From Dehalococcoidia bacterium (GTDB lineage: Bacteria; Chloroflexota; Dehalococcoidia; Lucifugimonadales; Australimonadaceae): a DNA stretch of 40,189 bases. Shown piece by piece: positions 14,763 through 40,189 of this stretch (positions are counted from its first letter, which is position 1; each line of letters starts with the position of its first letter). The notes beneath the pieces are model-generated. The model worked only from the letters and a program-made list of their open reading frames with translations, searched no databases and had not been told where the DNA came from. Where the stretch lies: the NCBI GenBank assembly GCA_046705745.1, contig JBJKQC010000260.1, forward strand, positions 1-40,189, read 5' to 3'. The position numbers and the translations under genes are program-made.

Positions 14763-15962
14763 ATGAACGGAACGCGACTGTCTTGGCTGATAGTGCCCAT
14801 CATGGCACTGGTGCTGTTGGTGGCTGCGGCATGCGGAAGCAATAGCCCCTCCCAGGCCAGCGGGCCCACGGCGACGACTCCGCCGACGCCGACCCAAAGC
14901 ACCCCCTCTACATCCGCAAGCCCGACCGCCACGCAGGCCGCCGCGCCCACCCCAACGTCGAGCACGCCCTACTTCCAAGGGAAGACCATCCGGCTGGTGG
15001 TCACCTCCTCTCCCGGCGGTGGAACCGACACTCAGGCCCGCTATCTAGCGGCCAAGTGGGGCCAGTTCATCCCCGGGCATCCTCGTATCACGGTGAGTAA
15101 CATCAGGCGGACCGCCGGCACGAATTACGCCTGGAACGCCAAGCCTGACGGGACCACGATCTTGTTCCAGGCCAACTCGAACATCTCCAGGGCGGATACG
15201 GACCCGCAGTCGCAGATGGATATCTCCAAAGTGCAGTACATAGCCGGATGGACGAGCAGGGTGCCTGCCCTGATGGTCTTTGACTCTGTCCCCTATAAGA
15301 CCATCAACGACGCCATGGGCAAAACGCAGCCCGTCATCCGTTACCCCGCGGAGGCGCCTAACGCGAACAGTATCAGCAGTACCGACCTCTCGGTCATGGC
15401 GATGGCCACCTATCTGAACGTTCCCATGAAGTTCGTGGCCGTGGCTGCGGCGAGCACCTCGGACGTCCTGCTCATGTACCAGCGTGGGGAGGCGGACGCC
15501 ATGGCCAAGGGCGGCCTGTGGCAGGAGTTGCCCGGGCTGGACCCGGGATGGGAGTCCCAGGGCAAGGTCAATTGTTTCGCTGTGCTGGGGCTTGCCGGAG
15601 CAAAGGTTGGCGCCAGTCCGGAGGCGCCGTGTAATGCCCCGTCTGTCGGCGACCTGGTGCCCGCATCTGACAAGGCGTTGTGGGACGCGCTGGCCGGACC
15701 CGACACGGTGGTGGGCAAGAACATATGGGTGCCGCCGGACACGCCCGCTTCGGTCGTCCAAATTCTGCGGAATGCCGCGCAACAGGCCGTACAGGACCAG
15801 ACTTTTGCCGCAGGGTACGCGAAGATAGCCGGAGAGGCGGTGGACTTCACTCCAGGTGCCCAGCTGCAGACGGAAATGGAGCAGACCAACACAGCCTTCC
15901 TCCAGCAGAAGGATAACGTGACCGCGTTCCAGCAGCAGATGTTTAACCAGTGGTTCAAGTGA
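14763..15962 (+). CDS. tctC: Tripartite tricarboxylate transporter (TTT) substrate-binding lipoprotein, TctC/Bug family
   Basis: GGAGGG RBS. Signal peptide with lipobox LLVAAAC. A Thr/Pro/Ser/Ala-rich tether of about 50 aa is followed by GKTIRLVV.SSPGGGTDTQARYLA, the TctC signature (PGGGTD). Confidence 0.85.
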   Translation: MNGTRLSWLIVPIMALVLLVAAACGSNSPSQASGPTATTPPTPTQSTPSTSASPTATQAAAPTPTSSTPYFQGKTIRLVVTSSPGGGTDTQARYLAAKWGQFIPGHPRITVSNIRRTAGTNYAWNAKPDGTTILFQANSNISRADTDPQSQMDISKVQYIAGWTSRVPALMVFDSVPYKTINDAMGKTQPVIRYPAEAPNANSISSTDLSVMAMATYLNVPMKFVAVAAASTSDVLLMYQRGEADAMAKGGLWQELPGLDPGWESQGKVNCFAVLGLAGAKVGASPEAPCNAPSVGDLVPASDKALWDALAGPDTVVGKNIWVPPDTPASVVQILRNAAQQAVQDQTFAAGYAKIAGEAVDFTPGAQLQTEMEQTNTAFLQQKDNVTAFQQQMFNQWFK

Positions 15963-16063
15963 GGTGGCGCGAGCGGCTATCGGTTAGCTACCAAAAGATG
16001 CAGCCTGCCGCGACATCGAGCACTGCTTGGCCCCGAAACCACAACGAGCAAGGAGGATGCGAG

Positions 16064-17275
16064 ATGGACAAATTGCGTCACCACCGGCTCTTGGCGTCAG
16101 TCCTTATAGGAGCGCTTCTGCTCCTCCTGGCCGCGGCTTGCGGTCAACCTGGCGCGGCCCAGTCGAATCAGCCGACGGCCACTCCAACCCCTACGCAGGC
16201 CGCCGCTCAGCCGACCGCTACAGCTACGCTGAGCTCGGCTTCGGCTGCTTCGCCAACAGCCACGCCCACGCAAGGTACGCCCTATTTCCAGGGCAAGACC
16301 ATTCGGCTCGTCGTGACTTCCTCGCCGGGCGGGGGCACCGACACCCAAGCGCGGTACTTGGCGGCCAAATGGAGCCAATTCATCCCGGGCCATCCCCGCA
16401 TCACCGTCAGCAATATCCGTCGGACTGCGGGCAGCAATTACGTCTGGAACGCCAAAGCCGATGGGACAACGCTGCTGTTCCAGGCACTTTCCGACATTGA
16501 TCGGATGGTGACTGACCCCCAGGCTCAGTACGACCTCCGCAAGGTCCACTTCATCGGCGGCTTCACGGTGGTCCAACCGGTGTTTATGACTTTCGACTCA
16601 GTGCCGTACAAGAGCGTGAATGACGCGATGGGGAAGACGCAGCCGGTTATCCGTTACGCCCTGGAAGCCCCAAGCGCGCAGAACATCAGCAGCGCTGACC
16701 TATCGGTCATGGCAATGGCCACATTCCTGAACCTTCCCTTCAAGTTCCTGCCGGTAGCCAAGTCCAGCACCGGTGACGTCATGCTCATGTATCAGCGGGG
16801 CGAGGTCGACTCCATCTACAAGCCCGGACTTTGGACCCAGATCCATGACTTGGACCCGGGATGGCAGAGTCAAGGCAAGATCAAGCCCTTCGCCATCATG
16901 GGGCTGCCCGGCGCTACCGTCGATCCCAATCCGGAAGGCCCGGCCAACGTGCCGTCCGTCGGTGACCTGGTGCCCAAGGACAAGCTGAGCCTCTGGGAAG
17001 CCATCACCGGGCCGTCTGTCATCATCGGCAAGAACATGTGGGCCCCTCCCGGCACGCCCGATTCCGCCGTCCAGATCTTGCAGAATGCCGCACAGGCGGC
17101 CATGCAAGACCCCACGTTCCTCGCCGGCTATCAGAAGCTCGCCGGCGCCGATACCAAGTTCACGCCCGCCTCGACATTGGAGCCGGAGATACAGCAGGGA
17201 GTCGAGGCGTATGTACAGAGCAAGGATGCCGTTACTGCTTTCCAGCAGCAGATGTTCAACCAGTGGTTCAAGTAG
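16064..17275 (+). CDS. tctC: Second TctC/Bug-family substrate-binding lipoprotein (tandem paralogue)
   Basis: ATG at 16064 with GGAGG 8 nt upstream (MDKLRHHRLLASVLIGALLLLLAAAC). Same tether and the same PGGGTDTQARYLAAKW core. The C-terminal 14 aa are identical to the upstream paralogue. Confidence 0.85.
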   Translation: MDKLRHHRLLASVLIGALLLLLAAACGQPGAAQSNQPTATPTPTQAAAQPTATATLSSASAASPTATPTQGTPYFQGKTIRLVVTSSPGGGTDTQARYLAAKWSQFIPGHPRITVSNIRRTAGSNYVWNAKADGTTLLFQALSDIDRMVTDPQAQYDLRKVHFIGGFTVVQPVFMTFDSVPYKSVNDAMGKTQPVIRYALEAPSAQNISSADLSVMAMATFLNLPFKFLPVAKSSTGDVMLMYQRGEVDSIYKPGLWTQIHDLDPGWQSQGKIKPFAIMGLPGATVDPNPEGPANVPSVGDLVPKDKLSLWEAITGPSVIIGKNMWAPPGTPDSAVQILQNAAQAAMQDPTFLAGYQKLAGADTKFTPASTLEPEIQQGVEAYVQSKDAVTAFQQQMFNQWFK

Positions 17276-21750: not shown

Positions 21751-22884
21751 CTACTTCGCTGCCAGGAAGCCTGTCAGCAGCGCCGCCGCCGCTTCGCGTG
21801 GGTTCTCTGCCTGCGTGACCGCGCTGATGACGCAGATGCCATCAGCGCCGGCCCGCGCAACGTCCCGAACGTTCCCTGCCGTGATGCCGCCGATGCCCAC
21901 GATTGGCGGACCGTCCGCCGGGATCACCTCTCGGATTTTCTGCAACGTCTCGGGCCCCGCAGGACGCGTATTGGACTTGGAGCTCGTCTCGAACATGCGC
22001 CCAACGGCGATATAGTCCGCTCCGAGCCGGTAGGACGCCGCGGCCTCCTCGACCAGGGCGTTGGAGATCCCTGCTATTTGCCATGGCATCAACACGCGCC
22101 GCGCGGCGTAAACGGGCAGGTCGTGCTGGCCAAGGTGTACGCCGTGGGCCTCTACGGCGACTGCCACGTCCGGATGGTCGTTGATCATGAGCGTGACGCC
22201 CGCCAGATGGCAGAGGTTGGCTAGCTGCTGCGCCAGGGGCAGGCCGTCGCCCTTCTCACGGCCCTTGTCTCTGAGCTGAAGCGCCGTCGCTCCTCCTACG
22301 ATGGCCTGCTCCGCTACCCAGACGGGGTCCCTCCCGTTAGTCAGCTCCGGGTCGATGATCACGTATAGCCCGCGCAGGTTCTCCGCAGCCCGCTGCCGAA
22401 ATCCAGACCCCGCCGTCCGAAAGACCTGAGTTAGCGCTTCCGCTAGCCCGACGAGCTGTGCCCGGCCTTCCGCCGCGGCCAACTCGCGCGGGATCAGGCG
22501 GTGCGTCTCCGCCACCATGGCCAGGGCCCCGCTCATAGCCATTAAGCGAACCTCCGGGGCCACCGGGCCGGAGAACATGCCGCGCATCGGCGCCATTTCC
22601 TCGATGGCCGCATCGATCACATCGATCACATCGTCCGACAGGCCCCCGAGGCCGATGGCCCGCGCCGCCGCCGTGACCCGGTTGGTGGTCTCTTCCGTGT
22701 CTTGGGCCAGCCGGAGGTCTTCCCGCAGCATCTGCAGGCCGCTGAACACCCAGCGCATCGCGGGGTTCGTGGACTCTGGGCTTGGCGGTGGGTAGTTGGG
22801 CGTGGTCAATGTGCGTGTCCTCGCTGAAGTAAGCACTGCGGAATGATTGCCTGTATTCTGGGACGCACGGAGTTTACCTCCCAT
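21751..22884 (-). CDS. thiE: Thiamine-phosphate synthase (ThiE) with a ~165-aa N-terminal extension of unknown function
   Basis: The C-terminal ~210 aa carry LYVIIDP...GGATALQLRDK...LMINDHPDVAVAVEAHGVHLGQHDLP...AVGRMFETSSK...IVGIGGIT, the canonical ThiE TIM barrel. The maximal ORF starts at 22884, but an alternative ATG at 22758 (MRWVFSGL...) is at least as plausible. Confidence 0.85.
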   Translation of the reverse strand: MGGKLRASQNTGNHSAVLTSARTRTLTTPNYPPPSPESTNPAMRWVFSGLQMLREDLRLAQDTEETTNRVTAAARAIGLGGLSDDVIDVIDAAIEEMAPMRGMFSGPVAPEVRLMAMSGALAMVAETHRLIPRELAAAEGRAQLVGLAEALTQVFRTAGSGFRQRAAENLRGLYVIIDPELTNGRDPVWVAEQAIVGGATALQLRDKGREKGDGLPLAQQLANLCHLAGVTLMINDHPDVAVAVEAHGVHLGQHDLPVYAARRVLMPWQIAGISNALVEEAAASYRLGADYIAVGRMFETSSKSNTRPAGPETLQKIREVIPADGPPIVGIGGITAGNVRDVARAGADGICVISAVTQAENPREAAAALLTGFLAAK

Positions 22885-22989
22885 GGGCTTCCCGTTGGCA
22901 ATCCATGTGGACCGCTCGGACTATTCCTGTGCCTATCCTCCCTTGCCCGCTAGGCGGTGCTCCGCGACAATGCCCCCGTGATTTCGCCT

Positions 22990-23565
22990 ATGCAGACCCG
23001 CTTTGGTGAAGTGGTGGAGGCGTCGCTGGAACGTCTGGTGGGGCAGTGCCATCGTCTCTACGATGCGCCGCCCCTGGGCAGACTCGTACGCGCTGGCGAT
23101 ACCGTTTACGGCGTGGTGCAAGATGTCGCCACGACGGCCTTGGACCCCACGCGTCGGGTGATCGCGCGAGGCGCGGATGCAGCTTCCGAGGATGAAATAT
23201 ACCGGGAACACCCTCAGCTCGAGCGCCTACTCCGTACGGACGTGGCCCTGGCCGTCGTAGGCCATCGCGAGGGGGGCGAGGTATGCCAGTACCTCCCGCC
23301 GTTGCCGCCGCGCATTCACACCTTCCTGCACCTCTGCCCGCCGGAAGAGATCCGCGCTTTCATGACCAAGTTCGACTTTCTGCCCCTGCTGGTACGGGTA
23401 GGCCAGCCCGGCGCCGATGACCTTGTTGCCGCAGTCCTGCGTCAGGCGTCCATGGCCTTCGACGCGCCGCACGATTTCCTGATCTCCGGCGGCCGCGCCC
23501 TCGCCGCATTGCTGTCGCGCGACACCGTCCGGCTGAACGCCGTCCTACGGAGGCTGCCGCTCTGA
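22990..23565 (+). CDS. HAS-barrel-like domain protein without an ATPase domain, paralogous to the N-terminus of the downstream HerA-like gene
   Basis: ATG at 22990 (the track ORF begins at GTG 22957). FGEVVEASLERLVGQC...LGRLVRAGDTVYGVVQDV and LAVVGHREGGEVCQYLPPLPPRIHTFLHLCPPEEIRAF parallel LGVVVGGSLSRGLDV...VGTFVTVLGSAHRYFGIITDL and ILAIGIGENNPQPARSLPGHFARVYRATNEDVQAVF in the next gene. Its stop lies 2 nt before the next ATG. Confidence 0.5.
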   Translation: MQTRFGEVVEASLERLVGQCHRLYDAPPLGRLVRAGDTVYGVVQDVATTALDPTRRVIARGADAASEDEIYREHPQLERLLRTDVALAVVGHREGGEVCQYLPPLPPRIHTFLHLCPPEEIRAFMTKFDFLPLLVRVGQPGADDLVAAVLRQASMAFDAPHDFLISGGRALAALLSRDTVRLNAVLRRLPL

Positions 23566-23567
23566 GC

Positions 23568-25178
23568 ATGGACTGGTTGGATGATGCTGTTGGGCCCTTG
23601 GGCGTCGTCGTTGGCGGCTCACTGTCGCGCGGGCTGGACGTCCGGCTGTTGTCGCACACGGCGGTCGAGGACGCCAAGGTCGGCACCTTCGTCACCGTCC
23701 TCGGCTCGGCCCACCGCTACTTCGGCATTATCACGGACCTGGTATTGGAGAGCAGCGACTCCCGCCTGGCGGCCGCTATGGACGCCGCCAACGATGCCGT
23801 GGCCCGCGTCCTGTCCGGCACCGCCGCCTACTCCCTGGCGCGTGTCACACCCATCCTGGCCATCGGAATTGGGGAAAATAACCCTCAGCCGGCCCGCTCC
23901 TTGCCCGGCCACTTCGCGCGCGTGTATCGCGCGACCAACGAGGATGTCCAGGCGGTCTTTGGCGGCGAGGATGCCCGCCATATCTATGTTGGCAGCCCGC
24001 TGGATATGGAGGACACCCGCGTCTGCTTGGACCTAGAAGAGCTGGTCAAGCGGTCCAACGGTGTCTTCGGCAAGAGCGGCACCGGCAAGAGCTTCCTCAC
24101 CCGTATTCTGCTGGCGGGCATCCTCCAGCGTGGCGTGGCCACCAACCTCGTGTTCGACATGCATAGCGAGTATGGGTGGCAAGGCACGCACGAGTCCGGC
24201 TACGCAGCCAAGGGTCTGAAGCAGCTCTTCCCCAGCCGTGTAGCGGTGTTCACCTTGGACGAGCAGTCCTCCCGCCGCCGCGGGGTCTCCACCGACTTCG
24301 TCGCTCGCATCGGCCTCAACGAGATCGAGCCGGACGACATCACCATTCTGGCGCCGACCCTCGGTATCACGGACCTGGGGGTGCAGGCCTGCTACACGCT
24401 GGAGCGCCACTTCGGTGACGACTGGATGCAGTCCTTTCTGGACGTGCCATCGGCCGAGGTGGCGACTTTGGCGGACTCCATCGGCGAGCACGCCGGTACG
24501 TTGGACGCGCTGCGGCGACGGCTGCGGCCTATCGAGCGGCTGGAGTTCACAGTGCACCGGACGCCGGCAGGGCAGGGGACCGTTCAGAAGGTCCTGGAGT
24601 ACTTGAAAGACGGCCGTCACGTGGTGCTGGAGTTCGGCCGCCACGGCGACAACCTCACCGCATACCTTCTGGTAGCGAACCTCCTGACCCGGCGCATCCA
24701 CGCCGAGTACCGGCGGCGCACCGAGCAGGCCCTGGCCGACAACACCAAGCAGCCCGGTCCCCTCGTTATCACCATCGAGGAGGCCCACCGCTTCCTGGCC
24801 CCAGGAATTGCTGGTCACACCATATTCGGCACCATTGCCAGAGAGATGCGCAAGTACCACGTCACCTTGCTCGTGGTGGACCAACGACCCTCCGGTATCG
24901 ACGAAGAGGTGCTCAGCCAGATTGGAACGCGCATCGTCTGCCAGCTCGACAACGAGCGCGACGTGGACGCCGTGCTTACCGGCGCGCCTGGCTCGCGAGA
25001 GCTTAAGGCCGTCCTTTCGCGCTTGGAGGCGCACCAGCAGTCGCTTATGTTCGGCCACGCCTTGCCCATGCCTGTTGTCGTCCGTACTCGCGACTACGAT
25101 GACGCTTTTTATGGGGACATGACGTTGCCTGGCTATGGGACAGCAGCAACGCGGGATAAGCAGGACCTGTTTAGGTGA
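23568..25178 (+). CDS. HerA/DUF87-type P-loop ATPase (FtsK-HerA superfamily) with an N-terminal HAS barrel
   Basis: 536 aa. Walker A is GVFGKSGTGKSFL and Walker B is LVITIEEAHRFL. REMRKYHVTLLVVDQRPSGIDEEVLSQIGTRIVCQLDNERDVDAVL is the HerA C-terminal signature. Confidence 0.85.
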   Translation: MDWLDDAVGPLGVVVGGSLSRGLDVRLLSHTAVEDAKVGTFVTVLGSAHRYFGIITDLVLESSDSRLAAAMDAANDAVARVLSGTAAYSLARVTPILAIGIGENNPQPARSLPGHFARVYRATNEDVQAVFGGEDARHIYVGSPLDMEDTRVCLDLEELVKRSNGVFGKSGTGKSFLTRILLAGILQRGVATNLVFDMHSEYGWQGTHESGYAAKGLKQLFPSRVAVFTLDEQSSRRRGVSTDFVARIGLNEIEPDDITILAPTLGITDLGVQACYTLERHFGDDWMQSFLDVPSAEVATLADSIGEHAGTLDALRRRLRPIERLEFTVHRTPAGQGTVQKVLEYLKDGRHVVLEFGRHGDNLTAYLLVANLLTRRIHAEYRRRTEQALADNTKQPGPLVITIEEAHRFLAPGIAGHTIFGTIAREMRKYHVTLLVVDQRPSGIDEEVLSQIGTRIVCQLDNERDVDAVLTGAPGSRELKAVLSRLEAHQQSLMFGHALPMPVVVRTRDYDDAFYGDMTLPGYGTAATRDKQDLFR

Positions 25179-25481
25179 GCCTAACCAATCTCCTTAGCTC
25201 GTAACTAGGCTCTCTTCCGCTACTGCAATGGAAGCTTGAAGGCAGGACACATTCGCGTGCGGCATTGTCTTGCCCCGAGCTCTGGATACTCGAAGGGCAA
25301 ACGGTCGACTATCTCCAACTGCGGCTTGTTCCGCCCATGTTGTTGTTTGCGTTCGCCTCGCTGCTTACTCCTTCCCATTCACTGCTAACCACCCACTTTC
25401 GCATCGACTATTGGACACACCAGCGGTCGGCCGGTGTATGATGCGCCGAGAAACGCGTGATTCGTCGCGAGGAGCTTGCAC

Positions 25482-26798
25482 ATGCTCGATGAAAAGCAAG
25501 GCGCGCAGGTACAGACCGTGGAGCGACCAGACGGCCATGCGGCACCCATGCCGTACCTGGGCCGCAGCGTGCGGGTCGTCGGCGATTGGCGGTCTGTCGA
25601 TGCCTCGCAGACGCCGCACGAAAAGAACAAGCGAGGCGAGCTGGGCCAAGCCCTCAAAAATTGGTACTTCAATCGGGCCTCGCGGGAGCCCCTCAGCCGT
25701 GTGGCCACCGTCAATAGCTCGGCCGATAGCCACAATGTCTTGGAGCACCTGGTCAGCCAGCTCCCCAAGGGTAAGGTCAACCCCACTAGAACTGAGGTCA
25801 AGGACCCTGCAATCATGGCCCGCCACATCAAGCGAGTGGCCAAGTTCCTTGGTGCATCCCACGTGGGCATCATGCGGGTCCAGCCCCAGTTCCTCTACGA
25901 GGGTGGTCGCTATCCGGACGATGGCTCCGGCGGTGCGGGATCCATCGACCACAAGGCCGTGGCGGAAGAGACAGCCCGCCGCTACCCCTACGCCATCGCT
26001 TGTGCCCTTGCCTGGGACTATGACATGGGCCGCGCGCACCGCCATCGCATCGGCGACGCGGCGTACCACTTTAGCGCCGAGGCGCTCCGCGAGATCTACG
26101 CCAACCTGGCTGCGTACATTCGCGAGATGGGATATTCCGTTGTGACCCGTATGACGACCCCTATGCCCGTGGCGCTGGCCGCTGGCATCGGCGAGCTGGG
26201 CCGCCTTGGCATGCTCATCACCGAGAAGTACGGCGCCCGTATACACTTGGGCGACCCTATCCTCACGGACATGCCGCTGGCGGTGGACGCGCCCATCGAC
26301 ATCGGCGTGGAGGACTTCTGCAAGGTCTGTAGGAAGTGCGCCAATACCTGCCCGACCAACAGCATCACCACCGAGGGCAAGTCTGTCGTCAACGGCGTCG
26401 AAAAGTACAAGATCAACTGGCAGACCTGCTACCGGCTCCGCCCCCATGTCATGGACTACTGGGACACCTGCCTCACCTGCGTGACCGTCTGTCCCTATAC
26501 CAAGCCCAACACCTGGTGGCACACCTGGGCCGTGCATGCCATGAAATGGACGCCCATACCGCTTAGGTCTTTTACGGCGAGGGGGCTGAAATGGATCGAC
26601 GATACTTTCTGGGGCAAGGTTCCACGCAAGCGCGTGCGCTGGATGAGCTTCGACACGGGCCGCCTCAAATTGCCAGACGGCACGATTATGCCGGAGAAGC
26701 CGGACATGGGCTACTACTACCCGCTGAAGGAGAACTCGCGCCGGTTCGACTTACTCAAGGAGAAGCTTAAGACAAAGAGCGACGCTCCGAGCCGGTAA
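25482..26798 (+). CDS. Reductive dehalogenase-family (RdhA-like) corrinoid/Fe-S protein, cytoplasmic type (no Tat signal)
   Basis: ATG at 25482 with GGAG 7 nt upstream. GELGRLGMLITEKYGARIHLGDPILTDMPL..D.PID.GVEDFCKVCRKCANTCPTNSI ... W..C......YWDTCLTCVTVCPYTK mirrors the PceA-type core plus two Fe-S motifs. There is no RRxFLK twin-arginine leader and no rdhB-like anchor gene nearby. Confidence 0.8.
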   Translation: MLDEKQGAQVQTVERPDGHAAPMPYLGRSVRVVGDWRSVDASQTPHEKNKRGELGQALKNWYFNRASREPLSRVATVNSSADSHNVLEHLVSQLPKGKVNPTRTEVKDPAIMARHIKRVAKFLGASHVGIMRVQPQFLYEGGRYPDDGSGGAGSIDHKAVAEETARRYPYAIACALAWDYDMGRAHRHRIGDAAYHFSAEALREIYANLAAYIREMGYSVVTRMTTPMPVALAAGIGELGRLGMLITEKYGARIHLGDPILTDMPLAVDAPIDIGVEDFCKVCRKCANTCPTNSITTEGKSVVNGVEKYKINWQTCYRLRPHVMDYWDTCLTCVTVCPYTKPNTWWHTWAVHAMKWTPIPLRSFTARGLKWIDDTFWGKVPRKRVRWMSFDTGRLKLPDGTIMPEKPDMGYYYPLKENSRRFDLLKEKLKTKSDAPSR

Positions 26799-26802
26799 AG
26801 GT

Positions 26803-26837
26803 CTACCCCTTTCTCCATTGCCGGCAGAAGGTCAGGG
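26803..26837. repeat. GC-rich hairpin repeat, same family as 4186-4217
   Basis: CTACCCCTTTCTCCATTGCCGGCAGAAGGTCAGGG shares CTACCC-TTCTCC ... AGAAGG-CAGGG with the nuoC-nuoD copy. Confidence 0.4.
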
Positions 26838-26934
26838 CCTGTCCTGATCGGAGCCGAAGGAATGAGGAGGAGACTTCATTATTCTGCGAGGAGTTCGCCT
26901 TACTCCATGCCAATTCCTTCGACAGAGGGAGGAT

Positions 26935-27549
26935 ATGAGTTTGCTTCAGCGATTGCCTTTTCGCCGTGAGAGCGACCCCTACTGGGACGGGTTTGTTAAC
27001 CGCCCGTTAGCGGATCCTGCCCATGACCTGGCCACTGCCATACGTAATGCCCACGAGGGCAAGGTGTTCCCCGTTGAGAGCGATGTCCCGCCCCCTGACC
27101 GCATGGCTCGTGATCTGGCCGAGTTGGCCCGCTTCTTAGGGGCTGCGCGCTTCGGCGTCGCGGCCACGAGCGCGGCTTACCTTCGACTTCGGCCTTCAGA
27201 GGACGGAGGCAAGGTGGAAGACGAAGAAGCCTTGGCAGCTGCGCACCCGTTCCTCTTGGTCTGCGTCGTTCCTGCCCAGTACGACCCGGCAGAAGCCCAA
27301 GGCATGGCCGGGCGTGCCGTAGCCCAGAAGTCCGCTAGTGTTTGCTTTACTCTCGCCGCCTATATCCGCGAGCTCGGCTACCGGGGCATGGTGACGCCTA
27401 TCGATTCGTGTGCTGCCGCGGTTGCGGCGGGCCTAGGGAACTTGGCACGGGACGGACGCTTGTCGGTGCCCGGCTACGGGTCGAAAGTCTACGTGGGCGA
27501 TGGCGTCCTGACCGACCTCCCGCTGGTCCCAGGGTGCCCGGCGATATGA
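26935..27549 (+). CDS. RdhA-like core-domain paralogue lacking the C-terminal ferredoxin (2x[4Fe-4S]) domain
   Basis: GGGAGG RBS. 204 aa. DRMARDLAELARFLGAARFGVA and AAYIRELGYRGMV...AVAAGLGNLARDGRLSVPGYGSKVYVGDGVLTDLPLVPG align with PAIMARHIKRVAKFLGASHVGI and AAYIREMGYSVVT...ALAAGIGELGRLGMLITEKYGARIHLGDPILTDMPLAVD of the upstream gene. The ORF stops exactly where that gene's Fe-S motifs begin. Confidence 0.6.
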   Translation: MSLLQRLPFRRESDPYWDGFVNRPLADPAHDLATAIRNAHEGKVFPVESDVPPPDRMARDLAELARFLGAARFGVAATSAAYLRLRPSEDGGKVEDEEALAAAHPFLLVCVVPAQYDPAEAQGMAGRAVAQKSASVCFTLAAYIRELGYRGMVTPIDSCAAAVAAGLGNLARDGRLSVPGYGSKVYVGDGVLTDLPLVPGCPAI

Positions 27550-27703
27550 CCTCTCCTTCAGCGTTGTCTCCGAAAGCTCTGCGTAGAGCGGAGGGCAAGA
27601 GACCCGTTCATCCTGAGCGCGGAGCAGTCGAAGGACGAACGAGCGTTGGTCTAGCGTCAAGGTTTGCTCCTCATTCAGACGGTCACGAAAGTGGTGTGTG
27701 CTC

Positions 27704-28393
27704 ATGACCACGAAACATGCCTTTGCAACCTACGTCATCACGGAGCCGTGTGTCGATGTCAAGGACGGCACATGCGTCGAGGTCTGCCCTGTCGATTGCA
27801 TCGAGACTGCATCTAGTGAGCCTCAGTACTACATCAATCCGGACCTGTGCATCGCATGCGAGCAGTGCGTGCTCGTTTGCCCGGTAGACGCCATCTTCCT
27901 CGAAAACGAAGTGCCGGAGAAGTGGCGAGGCTATGTCGAGAAAAACGCCGCCTTCTTCCAGCAGGCTGCGGCTGCGGTCCCTCCTGTAGGCAATGAGGAG
28001 GCGGAAGCCCTGCTCACCGGCGCGCGACAACGAGCTTTGGAGCTTGGCCTCTCGGTCAGCATCGCCGTCCTAGATAAGCAGGGCCAACTGGTGGGCCAAG
28101 AGTCTGTGGGCGCGCCGGACGCGGAGCGGCAAGTGCGCGCCCAGAACAAGGCCTATACCTCCGTCATGCTGGAGCGCGCCACTCTGCACGTGAACGAGCG
28201 GATGGTCCGCGGCGCGCTCTCCTCTGCCGACCAGGGCCGCATGGTGCTGGAGGCCGGAGGACTGCCCTTCGGCAGGCCCTACATTGTTGGCGCCATAGGC
28301 GTCGCTGGCGGTACGTGTGACCAAGACCAAGAGTGTGGGCTCGCCGCTCTCGCAAGCTGGAACCGCTGGGAAGCCGAGCGCGCGGCCGTGTAG
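27704..28393 (+). CDS. 7Fe-type ferredoxin fused to a GlcG/HbpS/PduO-C (DUF336) domain
   Basis: N-terminus: YVITEPCVDVKDGTCVEVCPVDCI ... CIACEQCVLVCPVDAIF, the FdxA-type [3Fe-4S][4Fe-4S] pattern. C-terminus: ALELGLSVSIAVLDKQGQLVG...KAYTS...GGLPF...IVGAIGVAGGTCDQDQECGLAAL, the DUF336 pattern. The ATG at 27704 is preferred over the GTG at 27698. Confidence 0.8.
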   Translation: MTTKHAFATYVITEPCVDVKDGTCVEVCPVDCIETASSEPQYYINPDLCIACEQCVLVCPVDAIFLENEVPEKWRGYVEKNAAFFQQAAAAVPPVGNEEAEALLTGARQRALELGLSVSIAVLDKQGQLVGQESVGAPDAERQVRAQNKAYTSVMLERATLHVNERMVRGALSSADQGRMVLEAGGLPFGRPYIVGAIGVAGGTCDQDQECGLAALASWNRWEAERAAV

Positions 28394-30211: not shown

Positions 30212-31273
30212 GTGCAATTTATTGAATACATGCAGGCCAACGGACACGAAGAATTGGCAGTCTGGACGGATCCCGCAGTTGGCCTGAAGGCATTCATCGC
30301 CATTCACGACACCACCTTGGGCCCATCTCTGGGCGGGACTCGGATATGGCCTCACTCCACTGATGATGAAGCCATTATGGACGTCTTGCGGCTGTCTAGG
30401 GCCATGACCTACAAGTCGGCGGCCGCTGGCCTCCCCTTGGGCGGTGGGAAGGGATTGATCCTAGCGGACCCGCGGACCCAAAAGACGGAAGCAATGTTCC
30501 GCTCATATGGGCGGTTCGTGCAATCCCTGGGCGGGCGCTACATCACCACAGAGGATGTCGGCGCGACGGCGCAGGAAATGGAGTGGATATCCTACGAGAC
30601 GGAATATGTCGTGGGCCTTTCCCAAGCAATGGGCGGTAGCGGGAATCCGGCTGTCGTGACGGGATTCGGCGTCTTTCAAGCAATGCGGGCCTGCGCCGAG
30701 GCAATGTGGGGCAGCGACTCACTCAAGGGTAAAAGAGTGGCTATTCAGGGTTTCGGGAATGCCGCTAGTTCCTTGGCCGGCCATTTGAAGGAAGCAGGGG
30801 CTAAGCTGATCGTGACGGACATTAGCGATGCGGCGCGCAAGCGTGCCGAGGCATTCGGTGGCGTCACCTGGGTGGACCCAGATGCTATCTTCGACGTGGA
30901 GTGCGACGTCTTGGCCCCTTGCGCCTTGGGTGGCGCCGTGAACGAAAAGACTATTCCCCGCCTCCAGTGCGCGATTGTCTGTGGTGCCGCAAACAACCAG
31001 CTAGCCGAGATTGCGGATGCCGACCGCTTGCAGCAGCGCGGCATCCTTTATGCGCCGGACTTTATTGTCAACGCTGGCGGGGTCATCAACGTTTACTTCG
31101 AGCTCGACCGCGAGTATAACGCCGAAGCCGCTTTGGAGAAGGCGAGCAAAATCTACGACACTATGCATCGCGTTATCCAAATGGCAAAGGACCAGCAGAT
31201 CACGACGGCGCAGGCCGCCGAGATGATCGCCGAGCAGCGGATTGAGTCCGTCGGCAGGGCTCGTGTCGTATGA
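30212..31273 (+). CDS. ldh: Leucine (branched-chain amino acid) dehydrogenase, Glu/Leu/Phe/Val dehydrogenase family
   Basis: GTG start with AGGAGA upstream. [44 protein letters not shown]...LPLGGGKG closely parallels Bacillus LeuDH ([35 protein letters not shown].RMW). The GFGNA Rossmann motif is present. Confidence 0.9.
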   Translation: [353 protein letters not shown]

Positions 31274-33668: not shown

Positions 33669-34526
33669 CTACACTGGCACCACGAGGCGACCTCGAATAT
33701 CCTTGAGGGTCTGCACATTCCTCGCATCAGGTCCCTTGTTTTCGTAGCCAGGCACCTCCAGGTAAAACGGGACGTCCCTGAAAGCTGGGTGGCCCAAGAT
33801 GGCCTCGAATGCGGCTAGCCCCATCTGGCCCTCGCCGATGTTCTCATGTCGGTCAACGCCCCCGCCAAGCGGTGGCTTCGAATCGTTGCAATGCACGGCT
33901 GCCAGGTGCTCGTTGCCGATCTCCTTCTCGAATTCCTTCATGACAGCCGCCACGCCCGAAGGCGTGGTGAGGTCGTAACCGGCAGCGAAACTGTGTTGGG
34001 TGTCCAAGCAGACCTGGACGCGCGGGTCGTTGACCTCGCGCAGCACTGCACCGAGCTCCGCGAACTTCGAACCTACGTGATTTCCCATACCCGCGCTGTT
34101 CTCCAGAATGAGCAGAGTGTCGTCCGGTGAATGGTCGAGCACCTCGCGGATGCCGCTGCAAATCTGGTCGAAGCAGGCTTCGAATCCGCGGCCTTTATGG
34201 CTACCCAGGTGGAAGATGACGCCCATCAGGCCAAGGTCGTGGGCCGCGTTCATGTAGTTGATAAGGGACTGTTTGCTGCGGCTCACCAGCGTCTCGTCAT
34301 CGGCCCCAAGGCTCACTAGGTAGATGCCGTGGAAGACGTTCGGACCGATATCGTGCCCCATGGCCTTCGTCCTGAACTTGGTGGCGACCAGCTCATCCAC
34401 GGGCTTGAAGGCCCATCCCTGCGGCGGCGAGCAAAAGATTTGCACAGCCTCAGCGCCGATTTCAATGGCGCGGTCGATCGCGAGATCCAAGCCTCCCGCG
34501 GTGGATACGTGCGCGCCGATCCGCAT
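33669..34526 (-). CDS. nfo: Deoxyribonuclease IV (endonuclease IV)
   Basis: MRIGAHVS.AGG, AVQIF...PQ.W, FHG.YL.NL, ILENSAG.G, CLDT.H.FAAGYD and HCNDSK...G...DRHENIGEG. All Nfo metal-binding motifs are present. Confidence 0.9.
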   Translation of the reverse strand: MRIGAHVSTAGGLDLAIDRAIEIGAEAVQIFCSPPQGWAFKPVDELVATKFRTKAMGHDIGPNVFHGIYLVSLGADDETLVSRSKQSLINYMNAAHDLGLMGVIFHLGSHKGRGFEACFDQICSGIREVLDHSPDDTLLILENSAGMGNHVGSKFAELGAVLREVNDPRVQVCLDTQHSFAAGYDLTTPSGVAAVMKEFEKEIGNEHLAAVHCNDSKPPLGGGVDRHENIGEGQMGLAAFEAILGHPAFRDVPFYLEVPGYENKGPDARNVQTLKDIRGRLVVPV

Positions 34527-35151: not shown

Positions 35152-35283
35152 ATGGTCTCAAGCGCTCTCGGTATCTCGTTGGAAGAGCTGCTGAAAAAGC
35201 TAGAGCACTTCCGGCGTGAATACGCCGATGACCCGGAGTACAAGGCACTCCGGTCGGCGTTGCCTGACGATTTCCCACTGTGA
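35152..35283 (+). CDS. Candidate 43-aa small protein (MVSSALGISLEELLKKLEHFRREYADDPEYKALRSALPDDFPL)
   Basis: Falls below the ORF-track length cutoff. Amphipathic-helix composition that is protein-like rather than GC-shadow-like. Convergent with the TenA/PqqC-like gene. The RBS is weak. Confidence 0.3.
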   Translation: MVSSALGISLEELLKKLEHFRREYADDPEYKALRSALPDDFPL

Positions 35284-35288
35284 TTCCA

Positions 35289-36044
35289 CTACCGCGCCAG
35301 TCGCACCCGTGGCTGGAGCAGCTTCAGCGGGCGCACGCCTGCCCAGTACTCGCGCTGGCCCGTCATGGCCTGCACGTGTCCGTCCCATTCCAGGTTCCAC
35401 GCCTCCAGCCCCAGCCGCACTGCCTTCCGCACTTGCTCTTGCGTTTCTTCATCCGTGGCCAGCCTGCGGATCATGTCGATCTGATGTGAGCCGTGCCCCA
35501 CGTCCTGTTGGGCGTGGATCCGGTAGGTCTCCGCCGCGTGCTCGGAGAAGCCGTAGTAGCCGACCAGCTCTGGATAGACTGACGCCGCGGCCCCATCAGG
35601 TCCGCCATGCTGACTTTCCACGAAGGCAAGCATGGCGATGCCCTCTAGCGCCGAGCGCCTCTGGCAGTGCCCCAGGATCATCTCGATAGCCGCCAGCGTG
35701 CCGGGCGCCGGCTCCGCCCTGTCCGCCTCCTCGCGGGAGATGCCCCCCTCCTCTAGGAACTGGAACATGATGTCCACGTGGCTCTTTTCGCCCGCCAACT
35801 CCTCCATGTAGTTCTCCAGCACCACCTCCGTGAGACCGGGGATACGCTCTCGGGCGGCGTTCACCGCGATGTAGCCGAAGTAGACCGGGTTCTCCCGCAC
35901 GCGCAGGTAGTGCTGTACCTCACCCAGTACTATCTGCTCCCTTGTCCAACGGTGCTCGACGATCCCCCGGAACCAGGGGTGCTCCCGCATGGGGAACTGC
36001 GCGGCGTAGTCCCACATCTCGGCAATGAAATCGTCCACTTGCAT
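35289..36044 (-). CDS. TenA/PqqC-like (heme-oxygenase-like fold) iron-containing redox enzyme family protein
   Basis: 251 aa. HPWFRGI..H.WTREQI..GEVQHY..V, EE..GEKSH..MF.QF and E....H.Q.D.GH are typical of the Haem_oxygenas_2/PqqC-like family. Confidence 0.7.
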   Translation of the reverse strand: MQVDDFIAEMWDYAAQFPMREHPWFRGIVEHRWTREQIVLGEVQHYLRVRENPVYFGYIAVNAARERIPGLTEVVLENYMEELAGEKSHVDIMFQFLEEGGISREEADRAEPAPGTLAAIEMILGHCQRRSALEGIAMLAFVESQHGGPDGAAASVYPELVGYYGFSEHAAETYRIHAQQDVGHGSHQIDMIRRLATDEETQEQVRKAVRLGLEAWNLEWDGHVQAMTGQREYWAGVRPLKLLQPRVRLAR

Positions 36045-36672: not shown

Positions 36673-37638
36673 CTACGCTGTGGCGCGCTCCCGACTTCCA
36701 ATGAACGGCATCACGCGGCGCAGCCATCGCCCCAGCTCCCCGTTCTCCCAGGACACCAACATCAGGCTGGCGATGAATATGGAGCTGTAGGTCCCCACTA
36801 CCACGCCGGCGGCTGTCACATATAACAGGGGCTGTATGGACTGGGTGGCGAAGAGGATGAGCGCGATAACCACGATGAGGACGGTGATGGACGTATTGAG
36901 GGAACGGGCCATCGTCTCCTTCACCGACAGACCGACAACCTCGGCGATGGGCGCGCCGGGGAACTTCGTGATGTTCTCGCGCACACGGTCAAAGATGACG
37001 ATAGTGTCGTTAACGCTATAGCCTATCACCAGCAGGATGCCCGTGATGAACATGGTATTGACTTCCATGTGGATGGTCTTCCCCAGTATGGAGAACAACC
37101 CCACGCTGATGACGGTGTCATGCGCCAGGGCGACGATAGCGCTCGTTCCATAGCGGAAGGGGTTGGGCACGCGCCGGAACGCCCAGGTCACGTAGAACAT
37201 GATGGCGACGGCGGCCACGAGGACGGCGATGATAGCGTTCCGCACGTTCTGCGCGCCCACGACGCCGGAAATGGTCTGGAAGTTTTGGATATTCGCCGTG
37301 CCAATGCTCGATAGCGCCTGCCGGACTTGTGACTCCTGGCCCGGTTTAATCACGTTCCCCTGCTGGTCGCGGACGTCCAGAGTCAGCACTCCTGTGCGGA
37401 TGAAGAAGCCATTATTCCCGGTCGATTGGACGATGGCGTCCGACTGGCCGACGGAGCTGAGCGCCTGCTGCACCTGCGTCGCTGTCACCGGCTGCTGATA
37501 GCTGACTGTAATGGCGGCGCCACCTGTGAAGTCGATCCCTGGGACCAGCGCCGGCGGTATCAGCAGCGAGATGATGGAAATCAGGACCAGCGTCCCAGAA
37601 AGGAGGAAGAACCATTTGCGGTGGCGGACAATCTCCAT
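36673..37638 (-). CDS. secF: Protein translocase subunit SecF
   Basis: 321 aa. GIDFTGG, DTIVIFDRVRE and six TM segments. Abuts the secD stop. Confidence 0.9.
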   Translation of the reverse strand: MEIVRHRKWFFLLSGTLVLISIISLLIPPALVPGIDFTGGAAITVSYQQPVTATQVQQALSSVGQSDAIVQSTGNNGFFIRTGVLTLDVRDQQGNVIKPGQESQVRQALSSIGTANIQNFQTISGVVGAQNVRNAIIAVLVAAVAIMFYVTWAFRRVPNPFRYGTSAIVALAHDTVISVGLFSILGKTIHMEVNTMFITGILLVIGYSVNDTIVIFDRVRENITKFPGAPIAEVVGLSVKETMARSLNTSITVLIVVIALILFATQSIQPLLYVTAAGVVVGTYSSIFIASLMLVSWENGELGRWLRRVMPFIGSRERATA

Positions 37639-39006
37639 CTAAGCACCTCGCTCCGTGGCCAAAGCCTGGCTTGCCCGTTTGGGGCTCCCTTCCGGGCTGA
37701 ACACCGGAAACTTCCGGAGAGGAGTCGCGATGACGATGGCCAGTACAGTTCGCGTCACAGCGAAGGCGGTGAACAGATTCGCGACCACGCCGATAGCGAG
37801 CGTAACGGCAAAGCCGGTAACCGCAGAGTTCGCGCCGCTGCTCCCGAAGAAGAAAAGGATGGCGGCGGTGATGAGCGTGGATACGTGGCCGTCCCGAATG
37901 GCGGACCAGGCCCTATTGAATCCTATCTGCAGAGAGAACGGCAGTGTCCTGCCCGCCCGCAGCTCTTCCTTCATGCGCTCGAAGATGAGGACGTTGACAT
38001 CCACCGCCATGCCCAGGGTCATGATGAACCCTGCGACACCCGCCAGGGTCAGGGTTACTGGGATGAGTTTAAAGATGGCGAGGACGATGGCGGTGTAAAA
38101 GGCCAGGACCAGGGAAGCCACGAAGCCCGACAGCCGGTAATACACGGTCATGAAGAACATCACGAGCGCGAGACCGACGATGCCGGCCACCAAGGCGCTC
38201 TTCAGCGAAAGCGAGCCAAGGGTGGGTGCTATGGTGCTGGAAGATATCTGCTGGACCGGCACCGGTAAGGCGCCTGACTCTATCTGGATGGCAAGCTGAC
38301 GGACCTGTTCGGCCGTGAAATTGCCCGTGATCTGCCCGCTTCCGGAGAGGATAGGCGACTGCACATCCGCCGAGACAAGGACTTGGTTGTCCAGCGTGAA
38401 GGCGAGCTGGTCCGGGTTGTTCGGTTTCGTGGTGTTCGTGGCGTAGATCTGTTGAGTGACCTCCGCGAAATGCTTCGCTGCGGCTGGTTTGAGCTGGAAG
38501 AGCAGAATCGGCTTGCCAGTCGTCGGGTCTTGCCCGGGAGACGCGCTGGACATGTCCGCGCCCGTCAAACCCGTGTCCTGGTCGGTGTAGCTCGTGCAGC
38601 CGGGGTTGTTGCACACGCGGTGGACGATCTTGAGCTGAGCGGTCTTCCCAATCTGACCTTCGGCCTGGCTAATGTTTTGAAAGCCGGGAAGTTGGATTAC
38701 CAGGCGGTCCTTGCCGAGCTGCTGAATGGTCGGCGAGGCTACGCCTAGGCTGTCAATGCGGCGGGTGATAGTGGAGATCAGTCCGTCCATCTGGTTCTGC
38801 GTAGGCGGTTGGCCGTTGACATTGCCCGCTTGATAGACGAGGTTGATCCCGCCGGCGAGGTCCAGGCCGAGCGTCAGGCCCATAATCTGATCCGAGCCGC
38901 GTTTGAAGCCGAGCACATTGACCTGCTGGGAGACAAGTGCCGCAACGGCGAGGGCGACTATGACCAGGATGAATGCCAGTGATCTAAGATGAAATCTACG
39001 TACCAA
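37639..39006 (-). CDS. secD: Protein translocase subunit SecD
   Basis: 455 aa. LGLDLAGG, periplasmic domain, GLALVMFFM..YYRLSG, LTLAGVAGFI.T.GMAVD.NVLIFER.KEE. Confidence 0.9.
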   Translation of the reverse strand: MVRRFHLRSLAFILVIVALAVAALVSQQVNVLGFKRGSDQIMGLTLGLDLAGGINLVYQAGNVNGQPPTQNQMDGLISTITRRIDSLGVASPTIQQLGKDRLVIQLPGFQNISQAEGQIGKTAQLKIVHRVCNNPGCTSYTDQDTGLTGADMSSASPGQDPTTGKPILLFQLKPAAAKHFAEVTQQIYATNTTKPNNPDQLAFTLDNQVLVSADVQSPILSGSGQITGNFTAEQVRQLAIQIESGALPVPVQQISSSTIAPTLGSLSLKSALVAGIVGLALVMFFMTVYYRLSGFVASLVLAFYTAIVLAIFKLIPVTLTLAGVAGFIMTLGMAVDVNVLIFERMKEELRAGRTLPFSLQIGFNRAWSAIRDGHVSTLITAAILFFFGSSGANSAVTGFAVTLAIGVVANLFTAFAVTRTVLAIVIATPLRKFPVFSPEGSPKRASQALATERGA

Positions 39007-39036
39007 GCTGGACCTCGAAGGGGCGGTGCCAAGATT

Positions 39037-39099
39037 CCCTTTCCCTCAGGGAAAGGGTCAGGGTGAGGGCTATTTCCCCTCCTCCTTGATAGGGGAGGG
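39037..39099. repeat. Two adjacent GC-rich hairpins (CCCTTTCCC-TCA-GGGAAAGGG followed by TCAGGGTGAGGG, then CCCCT-N10-AGGGG), same family as 4186-4217
   Basis: Perfect 9-bp inverted repeat at 39037-39057, and GGGTCAGGG as in the other copies. Located in the cca-secD spacer. Confidence 0.45.
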
Positions 39100-39191
39100 T
39101 CATGACGGGGATGGAAAGCTCATGGGGCAAAGCTATCACTCCCATCCTAACCTTTTCCCGCCAGACGAAAAGCGACTTTCCGCACACGCTT

Positions 39192-40189
39192 TCATGATTT
39201 ACGATCACCGATGATAGAACGATTGCTTGCCAGGAGCCGGTGCGCCAACTCCAGCGCTTCCTCGCGCGAGCCGATTTCGCCGGCACCAGCCGCTTCTTCG
39301 ATTGCCTTCAGCAGGCGCCCCAGAGGGGGCCCAGGCTTCAGTTGGAAGCGCTCCATGAGGTCGTGACCCGTCAGGAGGCGCGGTCTTTTCGTTTCACGGT
39401 CGCTAGACTCATTCCTGAGCACCGAAGAACAGATTGTAGCATGGCGCTGCCATCGCGGGAACTCGAAATCCGGCCCTCGTGCGCCCAGATGGTCGGCCAA
39501 GCTAAGGTACAGCGTGTCGACTGCGGCGTCGCCCAAATCACGGTAATACCGCCATACGGCCCTGCGCGAAGGCTCTTGAGGCTGGGGCGCCTCGCCGGGA
39601 GCGCCCCTTCGTGGTGATACCAGCTGAGTGGGGCGGAGGTGCTCCAGGACCATGAGCGCCACGTGGCGGATAGCCTTCCCACTGAAGTGCAGCCGCGCCA
39701 TGGTCGCTTTCGTCATCTCGGCCCCCAGCTCAGGGTGTCCCAAGAACCGCATGCGCCCGTCCTGCTCCACTGAACGCGAGGCCGGTTTCCCGATGTCGTG
39801 AAACAGCGAGGCCAACTTGACGAAGGTGCTCCGCGGGTGCTCGTGGGCGAAGGTGGTTGCGAAGTGAGTCGCCAGCGTGCCGTCCCACGGCACCTCGTTC
39901 AGGACTTCGCTGGGCAGTCCCTCGCGGCCCAGCAGCTTGCGGGCGAAACCTACTGTCTGGAGCGTGTGCTCCAGCACGTCCCAGTGGTGCTCGGGCGGTT
40001 GTAGGCACCCCCGCATGGGCGCCATTTCGGGGAAGAGGCGCATGAGCAGGCCGAGACGGTCCAAGGTGTGGAGCGCCTCGGTAGCGTCGGGCGCTTCCAG
40101 CAGCAGGAGAAACTCGTCCCGCAGGCGGTCCGGCGACACCCGCTCCACGAGCTCGGCGCTGTCGACCAGGGCCTCCTCCAGCCCGGCGT
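39192..40189 (-). CDS. cca: CCA-adding tRNA nucleotidyltransferase/poly(A) polymerase family protein, C-terminal part with HD domain; the 5' end lies outside the window
   Basis: RLRDEFLLLLEAPDATEALHTLDRLGLLMRLFPE (RNA-binding region) and HHWDVLEHTL...LFHDIGKP...GHPELGA (HD domain). The frame stays open to the window edge. Confidence 0.75.
   Translation of the reverse strand, partial: AGLEEALVDSAELVERVSPDRLRDEFLLLLEAPDATEALHTLDRLGLLMRLFPEMAPMRGCLQPPEHHWDVLEHTLQTVGFARKLLGREGLPSEVLNEVPWDGTLATHFATTFAHEHPRSTFVKLASLFHDIGKPASRSVEQDGRMRFLGHPELGAEMTKATMARLHFSGKAIRHVALMVLEHLRPTQLVSPRRGAPGEAPQPQEPSRRAVWRYYRDLGDAAVDTLYLSLADHLGARGPDFEFPRWQRHATICSSVLRNESSDRETKRPRLLTGHDLMERFQLKPGPPLGRLLKAIEEAAGAGEIGSREEALELAHRLLASNRSIIGDRKS

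Follow-up and report, generated by a model that had tools for sequence, protein, structure and literature searches.

The 40,189-nt stretch of a Dehalococcoidia bacterium analysed here (contig JBJKQC010000260.1; "the window" means this whole stretch) carries a herA gene encoding an ATPase of the FtsK-HerA superfamily. Directly before herA lies an open reading frame (ORF) for a small protein of 191 aa, which we call X. A protein of the same length, identical to the window X, is present in a public protein collection (P0001). The reading frame of X begins with ATG, and an alternative start, GTG, is found at 22957. The sequence-only reading of this DNA had described an ORF of about 192 aa whose stop lies 2 nt before the HerA ATG. 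We confirmed this junction as TGA-GC-ATG; the protein has 191 aa. A Shine-Dalgarno-like GGAGG is located within the codons for the C-terminal LRRL of X. In related loci, AGGAGG often encodes the conserved LRRL of X just 5' of the herA start. The coordinates of all features are collected in Table 1.

Judging by its sequence, the 536-aa protein is a HerA-type ATPase, and it is predicted to form a hexameric, DNA-translocating ring. It matches the Pfam family PF01935 (DUF87/HerA central domain) with 94.2 bits at residues 139-377 (E=1.6e-26; cutoff 23.2). The sequences of nine solved HerA-family structures in the PDB also match it, with E down to 4e-19. The matches to the HerA models of NCBIfam and PADLOC are partial; the score against the NCBIfam equivalog is 91.7 bits, far under the cutoff of 970. 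A further stretch, LLVVDQRPSG...QLDNERD, is located at residues 434-465. Every motif that had been quoted when the gene was first assigned to the FtsK-HerA ATPases is present, and the assignment holds with PF01935 above its threshold. The N-terminal part of the window HerA matches the HAS-barrel family PF09378 weakly (18.1 bits with a cutoff of 25.2, E=0.003, residues 12-62). A weak precomputed match to PF09378 is also found in the HerA genes of three related loci (L081, L082 and L092).

It turned out that X is a HAS barrel followed by a small helical domain, that it lacks a P-loop and that it is a paralogue of the HerA N-terminus. The AlphaFold2 model of X, obtained with an alignment of 61 sequences, has a predicted local distance difference test score (pLDDT) of 93.4 and a predicted template modelling score (pTM) of 0.88. 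In this model a beta-barrel occupies residues 4-115, and five helices lie within residues 118-186. Using Foldseek, we compared the fold of X with the PDB. Each of the top 50 matches is a HerA chain (E between 1e-6 and 2e-3, about 130 columns aligned); these chains come from Sulfolobus, Thermococcus and Deinococcus and from the anti-phage systems SIR2-HerA, DUF4297-HerA and TdpAB. We also aligned the X family with the N-terminal 150 residues of the cognate HerAs using hhalign. Residues 2-138 of X fall on residues 8-144 of HerA, collinearly from end to end, with 20% identity and P=0.008. The motifs that had earlier been matched by eye recur in this alignment, the linker helix (E-[DE]-[VI]-x-x-F) among them. 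The HAS-barrel profile of Pfam, which had been proposed as a check, gave a divided answer: the window X does not match PF09378, whereas 9 of 22 distant members of the X family do at E<=0.01. One of these distant members, P0355, scores 37.5 bits, above the cutoff of 25.2. The likeness to a HAS barrel that had been seen by eye is thus borne out by the AlphaFold2 model, the fold search, the distant members and hhalign, and the helical tail without a P-loop was found as described.

The homology of X and HerA is too weak for a pairwise search, and BLASTP detected no similarity between them. The window X has no family match in Pfam (none at E<=1), NCBIfam or PADLOC. Searches of the PDB sequences with X and with the X-family profile (phmmer and hmmsearch) returned chance matches only, and a comparison of the X fold with viral structures gave no match. 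When the C-terminal domain was folded alone, it formed five helices (pLDDT 92.3), and a fold search with this domain found no relative among solved structures (best E=3.9). X is a copy of the HerA N-terminus, that is, of the barrel and the linker helix, in which the ATPase module has been swapped for a family-specific five-helix domain. We also considered whether X could be a split-off piece that completes a truncated HerA. This was ruled out: HerA retains its own N-terminal 140 residues, which can be aligned with X. HerA probably has a barrel of its own, so that X comes on top of it and is no missing part.

X and herA form a tightly coupled, conserved pair. One genome per species was scanned, which gave 80 X loci, all from metagenome-assembled genomes of the Dehalococcoidia type. 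Using tblastn, we found HerA downstream of X in 78 of these 80 loci; conservation of the pair had been named as a test, and the gene-neighbourhood survey supports it. The gap between the two genes is less than 200 bp in most loci and 0.2-1.9 kb in about 18. The stop codon of X and the start codon of herA overlap by 4 nt in 46 of the 78 loci and by 1 nt in 11 (57 of 78 together). This overlap suggests roughly equimolar synthesis of the two proteins, a pattern more usual for subunits than for regulators. A collection of 5.8 billion proteins contains 446 homologues of X, not one of them with a functional name; where a source is named, it is Chloroflexota, Dehalococcoidia or SAR202. Among 1.84 billion cluster representatives, searched with no word-index prefilter, the X family comprises 916 clusters (50% identity) at E<=1e-3, of which 596 reach E<=1e-10. 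The 150 best representatives are, with few exceptions, stand-alone proteins of about 190-230 aa. Named members beyond Dehalococcoidia include proteins of other Chloroflexota and of Armatimonadota. One of them, P0517 of Fervidibacter sacchari, matches the X-family profile with E=4e-67 and carries the NCBI label "HAS-barrel domain-containing protein".

Clustering of the ORFs of the 80 loci revealed a 404-aa gene upstream of X in 32 of them. This gene encodes NurA (PF09376, 79.7 bits, E=3e-22). For the survey of nurA we used a hidden Markov model (HMM) built from the NurAs of these 32 loci. In all 32, X is no more than 55% identical to the window X, and nurA lies on the same strand as X. In about two thirds of these loci nurA is the immediate upstream neighbour of X, and in the others it is 0.5-4.5 kb distant. 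The distance between nurA and X is usually 50 bp or less; it is 0.1-1.2 kb in about ten loci and 3-4.5 kb in L044, L069 and L076. In the latter three loci, other genes are inserted between nurA and X-herA, and these loci have the appearance of intermediates toward the unlinked state. More distant members of the X family were represented by nine metagenome loci (L081-L087, L091 and L092), and nurA is upstream of X in all of them. In L081, L082/L083 and L086/L087 the order is nurA-X-herA with overlapping junctions. In L091 and L092, which were reached from NurA homologues, the order is selB-nurA-X-herA. One related locus on a low-GC metagenome contig (L084) has five genes on one strand in the order nurA-X-herA-mre11-rad50, where mre11 and rad50 were assigned by their Metallophos and SMC_N/AAA_23/SbcC domains. 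These are the four genes that are clustered in archaea, plus X; a nucleotidyltransferase/HEPN pair comes after them. Mre11-Rad50 is not among the annotated flanking genes of the window.

Several genes on the downstream side (ELFV dehydrogenase, endonuclease IV and SecDF) are common to both clades, with and without a linked nurA. The gene for a Glu/Leu/Phe/Val dehydrogenase (ELFV) lies 3' of herA in 48 related loci, and the gene for endonuclease IV in 44. In L092, nurA-X-herA is followed by the ELFV dehydrogenase and endonuclease IV, and in L082 SecDF and the CCA enzyme come after herA. By these common genes, the window locus is orthologous to the nurA-X-herA operons. Most simply, the ancestral operon would have been nurA-X-herA, and the window's clade would have lost nurA from it. 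The window is a case of lineage-specific uncoupling or loss of nurA and not a separate kind of HerA system. In the sequence-only reading, the pair was taken for a HerA system with no NurA or other nuclease partner, and a NurA-like gene near its orthologues was named as the finding that would contradict this. The claim stands within the 40-kb window. It does not stand in the sister lineages, where just such a gene is present in 32 genome loci and 9 metagenome loci.

We also estimated the selection acting on both proteins. Close pairs from the clade without a linked nurA gave median ratios of nonsynonymous to synonymous substitution rates (dN/dS) of 0.11 for X (from 133 pairs) and 0.07 for HerA (from 116 pairs), as against 0.17 for X and 0.08 for HerA in the nurA-linked clade. 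The residues E7, C20, L23, P27, G30, T48, R55, A59, G61, P75, L80, T83, G91, L102, P106, I109, H110 and C116 of X do not vary in either clade. Of the positions conserved in the nurA-linked clade, no more than two minor ones are variable in the unlinked clade. Because the invariant residues match in both clades and just these two sites are relaxed, X bears no sign of a decayed NurA-contact surface. The X-HerA pair is still in use without a linked nurA, under strong purifying selection. Residues C20, C116 and H110 are nearly invariant across the X proteins of Dehalococcoidia, and C20 is not kept in more distant family members. A metal site or a disulfide at these residues is possible.

With somewhat better than even confidence, we propose that X is a non-catalytic HerA paralogue that serves as a stoichiometric third subunit of the bacterial NurA-HerA DNA-end-resection machine. 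In solved Deinococcus and archaeal complexes, a NurA dimer docks on the HAS-barrel face of HerA (PMC9960219). According to our proposal, X would be synthesised in about the same amount as HerA and would join the HerA hexamer through barrel-to-barrel contacts at this face; the stoichiometry and the position on the ring are guesses. There X could add a tier or collar to the ring and lengthen or gate its DNA channel, and with its helical domain X may help to dock, hold or regulate the nuclease. In the window's lineage, nurA would have gone from the operon, with thiE in its place, and X-HerA would most likely work with NurA or another nuclease encoded elsewhere. We favour an extra subunit of the known NurA-HerA machine over a nuclease-free system because the same pair follows nurA in related bacteria.

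Several observations weigh against this proposal. About 46 loci in which X is at least 56% identical to the window X have no NurA in their flanks (mostly 8 kb upstream and 2-8 kb downstream). The HMM found no NurA at E<=10 in the six-frame translation of the window, which covers 23 kb upstream and 15 kb downstream of the pair. Solitary X genes, with neither herA nor nurA in their flanks, occur in one Dehalococcoidia genome (L006) and in three Armatimonadota loci, including that of Fervidibacter sacchari. No natural fusion of X with HerA is found among the 150 best representatives of the family, and the single apparent fusion of NurA with X (P0346) reads as a miscalled gene. Since X stands alone in L006 and in Armatimonadota and nurA is distant in some loci, it is plausible that NurA is encoded elsewhere in the genome of the window's lineage.

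The arrangement of X relative to HerA may be considered in the light of related rings. The N-terminal barrels of the alpha and beta subunits of F1/V1-ATPases, from which the HAS (HerA-ATP synthase) barrel takes the second half of its name, have the same fold and form a six-fold crown that holds the ring, and one ring contains both catalytic and non-catalytic paralogues. However, the non-catalytic alpha subunit of F1, unlike X, keeps a full nucleotide-binding domain. Lacking such a domain, X has nothing with which to take up a place in the ATPase tier, which makes an F1-like alternation of X and HerA in one ring unlikely; on steric grounds, stacking on the ring or binding at its periphery is more probable.

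Instead of a subunit, X could be a regulator or decoy. As a mimic of the HerA barrel, it would occupy the face with which HerA binds NurA, or that with which NurA binds HerA, and keep the pair inactive, or set its assembly, until DNA ends appear. X copies exactly the domain of HerA that binds NurA (PMC9960219), its gene sits between nurA and herA, and it is sometimes encoded apart from HerA. However, the overlap of the X stop with the herA start suggests the roughly equimolar synthesis more usual for a subunit, and X is strongly constrained even where nurA is unlinked. We rate this possibility as unlikely. It is more doubtful still that NurA has been truly lost in the window's clade and that X-HerA acts there as a nuclease-independent DNA translocase, with X capping or adapting the ring or recruiting another effector through its helical domain. 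The lack of NurA in the 40-kb window and within 8 kb in the loci of the same clade would fit this explanation, as would the purifying selection on both X and herA and the absence of a known fold relative of the C-terminal domain. On the other hand, the invariant residues of X are those of the nurA-linked clade except for the two relaxed sites, the distance of nurA in the apparent intermediates points to relocation and not to loss, and the flanks contain no alternative conserved partner gene. A bolder version of the subunit proposal, to which we likewise give little credence, is that X forms its own six-fold HAS-barrel ring, coaxial with HerA. This two-tier crown would belong to an obligate three-protein NurA-HerA machine. 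The clade of the window would then have released the X-HerA core from NurA, to act as a DNA pump independent of a nuclease or with a new effector bound through the helical domain of X, a fold orphan.

X might also be a small DNA-binding barrel that acts by itself, with no more than a loose tie to HerA, and recognises or protects DNA ends or single-stranded DNA. HAS-barrel-like domains have been grouped with small DNA-binding beta-barrels (PMC12839542), X has a conserved Arg-rich loop DPxRRxxARG, and solitary X genes exist. This is very improbable in our opinion: the coupling of X to herA is tight across hundreds of lineages, and X is specifically and collinearly similar to the N-terminus of its cognate HerA, including the linker helix. 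A defence system is ruled out by the housekeeping context and the conserved synteny.

In the window, the genes upstream of X are nuo genes, tctA, a DUF2267 gene and thiE. Downstream of herA lie an rdhA-like gene, a metE-like gene, the ELFV dehydrogenase gene, mgtE, the endonuclease IV gene (nfo), secF, secD and the gene for the CCA enzyme. The sequence-only reading saw no mobile or defence-island context and named thiE and an rdhA-like gene as the flanks; both points agree with our annotation, in which housekeeping genes surround the pair and their synteny is kept throughout the class. A divergent thiE is found upstream of X in 30 related loci of the window's clade. ThiE has an N-terminal extension of about 170 aa without a Pfam match before its TMP-TENI domain, and this long form is kept in the 30 related loci. 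The rdhA-like gene scores 155.7 bits against TIGR02486, just under the cutoff of 160.35. After it come a paralogue of its N-terminal half, truncated to 204 aa and lacking the iron-sulfur (Fe-S) part (32% identity, E=2e-24), and a ferredoxin fused to an HbpS-like (GlcG) domain. Together these three genes may encode an RDH-like enzyme that is split, its Fe-S module being carried by another protein. Two adjoining ORFs of 399 and 441 aa have high third-position GC and no match in Pfam or NCBIfam. An ORF of 157 aa has a third-position GC of 0.46, as compared with 0.66-0.83 in its neighbours, and may be a spurious or a foreign gene.

Table 1. Coordinates of the genes, domains and motifs discussed in the text (window positions unless a locus is named).
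Feature	Position	Strand	Remarks
X gene	22990..23565	+	ORF, ATG start, 191 aa
HAS-barrel domain of X	22990..23334	+	Residues 1-115; AlphaFold2, Foldseek, PF09378 on distant members, hhalign
X residue C20	23047-23049		Codon
X loop DPTRRVIARG	23143-23172	+	Conserved
X loop HPQLERLLRT	23209-23238	+	Conserved
X loop LPPLPPRIH	23293-23319	+	Conserved
X residue H110	23317-23319		Codon
X residue C116	23335-23337		Codon
C-terminal five-helix domain of X	23335..23562	+	Residues 116-191; family-specific
GGAGG, Shine-Dalgarno-like	23549..23553	+	14 nt before herA ATG
X stop, spacer, herA start	23563..23570	+	TGA 23563-23565, 2-nt spacer GC, ATG at 23568
herA	23568..25178	+	536 aa, FtsK-HerA superfamily ATPase
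Putative HerA N-terminal HAS barrel and linker	23589..23999	+	Residues 8-144; hhalign with X, weak Pfam match
Walker A GKSGTGKS	24069..24092	+	HerA residues 168-175
Walker B region LVITIEEAH	24762..24788	+	HerA residues 399-407
Two adjoining ORFs	14763-17275		399 and 441 aa
thiE	21751..22884	-	Divergent; Pfam TMP-TENI; at position of nurA in sister lineages
rdhA-like gene	25476-26798		First part of possible split enzyme (25476-28393)
Truncated rdhA-like paralogue	26935-27549		204 aa
Ferredoxin-HbpS-like (GlcG) fusion	27698-28393		Last part of possible split enzyme
ELFV dehydrogenase	30212-31273	+	Pfam; synteny marker
Endonuclease IV	33669-34526	-	Pfam; synteny marker
157-aa ORF	35216-35689		Possibly spurious or foreign
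SecF, SecD, CCA enzyme	36673-40148		Pfam
nurA-X-herA-mre11-rad50	L084:6829-13972		Five genes on one strand
Solitary X genes	L006:7908-8576; L088:4691-5335; L090:8001-8591		No herA or nurA in flanks

The closest known system is the HerA-NurA end-resection complex of Sulfolobus, Thermococcus and Deinococcus (PDB 4d2i, 9x1l/9x1m and 7wrw), which has the same type of HerA ATPase with a DUF87 core, Walker motifs and a HAS barrel, the last of these probable in the window HerA. As in that system, relatives of the window carry nurA in the operon, in L084 together with mre11-rad50, and the chromosomal context is a housekeeping one. The differences are the extra HAS-barrel-only gene between nurA and herA in the relatives, of which the HerA-NurA papers that we searched say nothing, and the lack of nurA at the window locus. 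In the HerA anti-phage systems SIR2-HerA, DUF4297-HerA and TdpAB, the HAS-barrel face also holds the partner; their structures are among the matches to the X fold, and the window HerA partly matches the PADLOC models of HerA. However, the window has no SIR2, DUF4297 or other effector beside HerA, X has no match in PADLOC, and the synteny is of the housekeeping type. The X-family member of Fervidibacter sacchari (P0517) has an automatic domain label, no function or partner has been described for it, and its gene lies away from herA and nurA.

The HAS barrel is said to have been defined by Iyer et al. 2004. Neither a HAS-barrel protein that stands alone as a partner of HerA nor a nurA-X-herA operon was described in the full-text literature that we searched, although Iyer et al. 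2004 may touch briefly on stand-alone HAS barrels. Pfam and NCBIfam contain no dedicated model for the X family, and the automatic label of P0517 is the one trace of the family that we found. Thus, the earlier statement that no HerA system of this composition was known as described is in line with the literature. In our view, this is a NurA-HerA system to which a non-catalytic barrel subunit has been added. A known system is thereby extended, and the window represents a sub-lineage with the nuclease gene outside the operon.

The structural studies of archaea and bacteria that we searched present HerA-NurA as a machine of two proteins, in which a HerA hexamer is joined by a NurA dimer. Phage-defence complexes based on HerA are understood from this template as well. 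With a conserved third protein that is a duplicate of the partner-docking domain, the models of assembly, channel geometry and nuclease control would change. The group of bacteria concerned is large: X forms at least 916 protein clusters at 50% identity, with Chloroflexota, including marine SAR202, and Armatimonadota as named sources. The clades with linked and unlinked nurA are a natural experiment, which can separate the role of X for HerA from the role of X for NurA.

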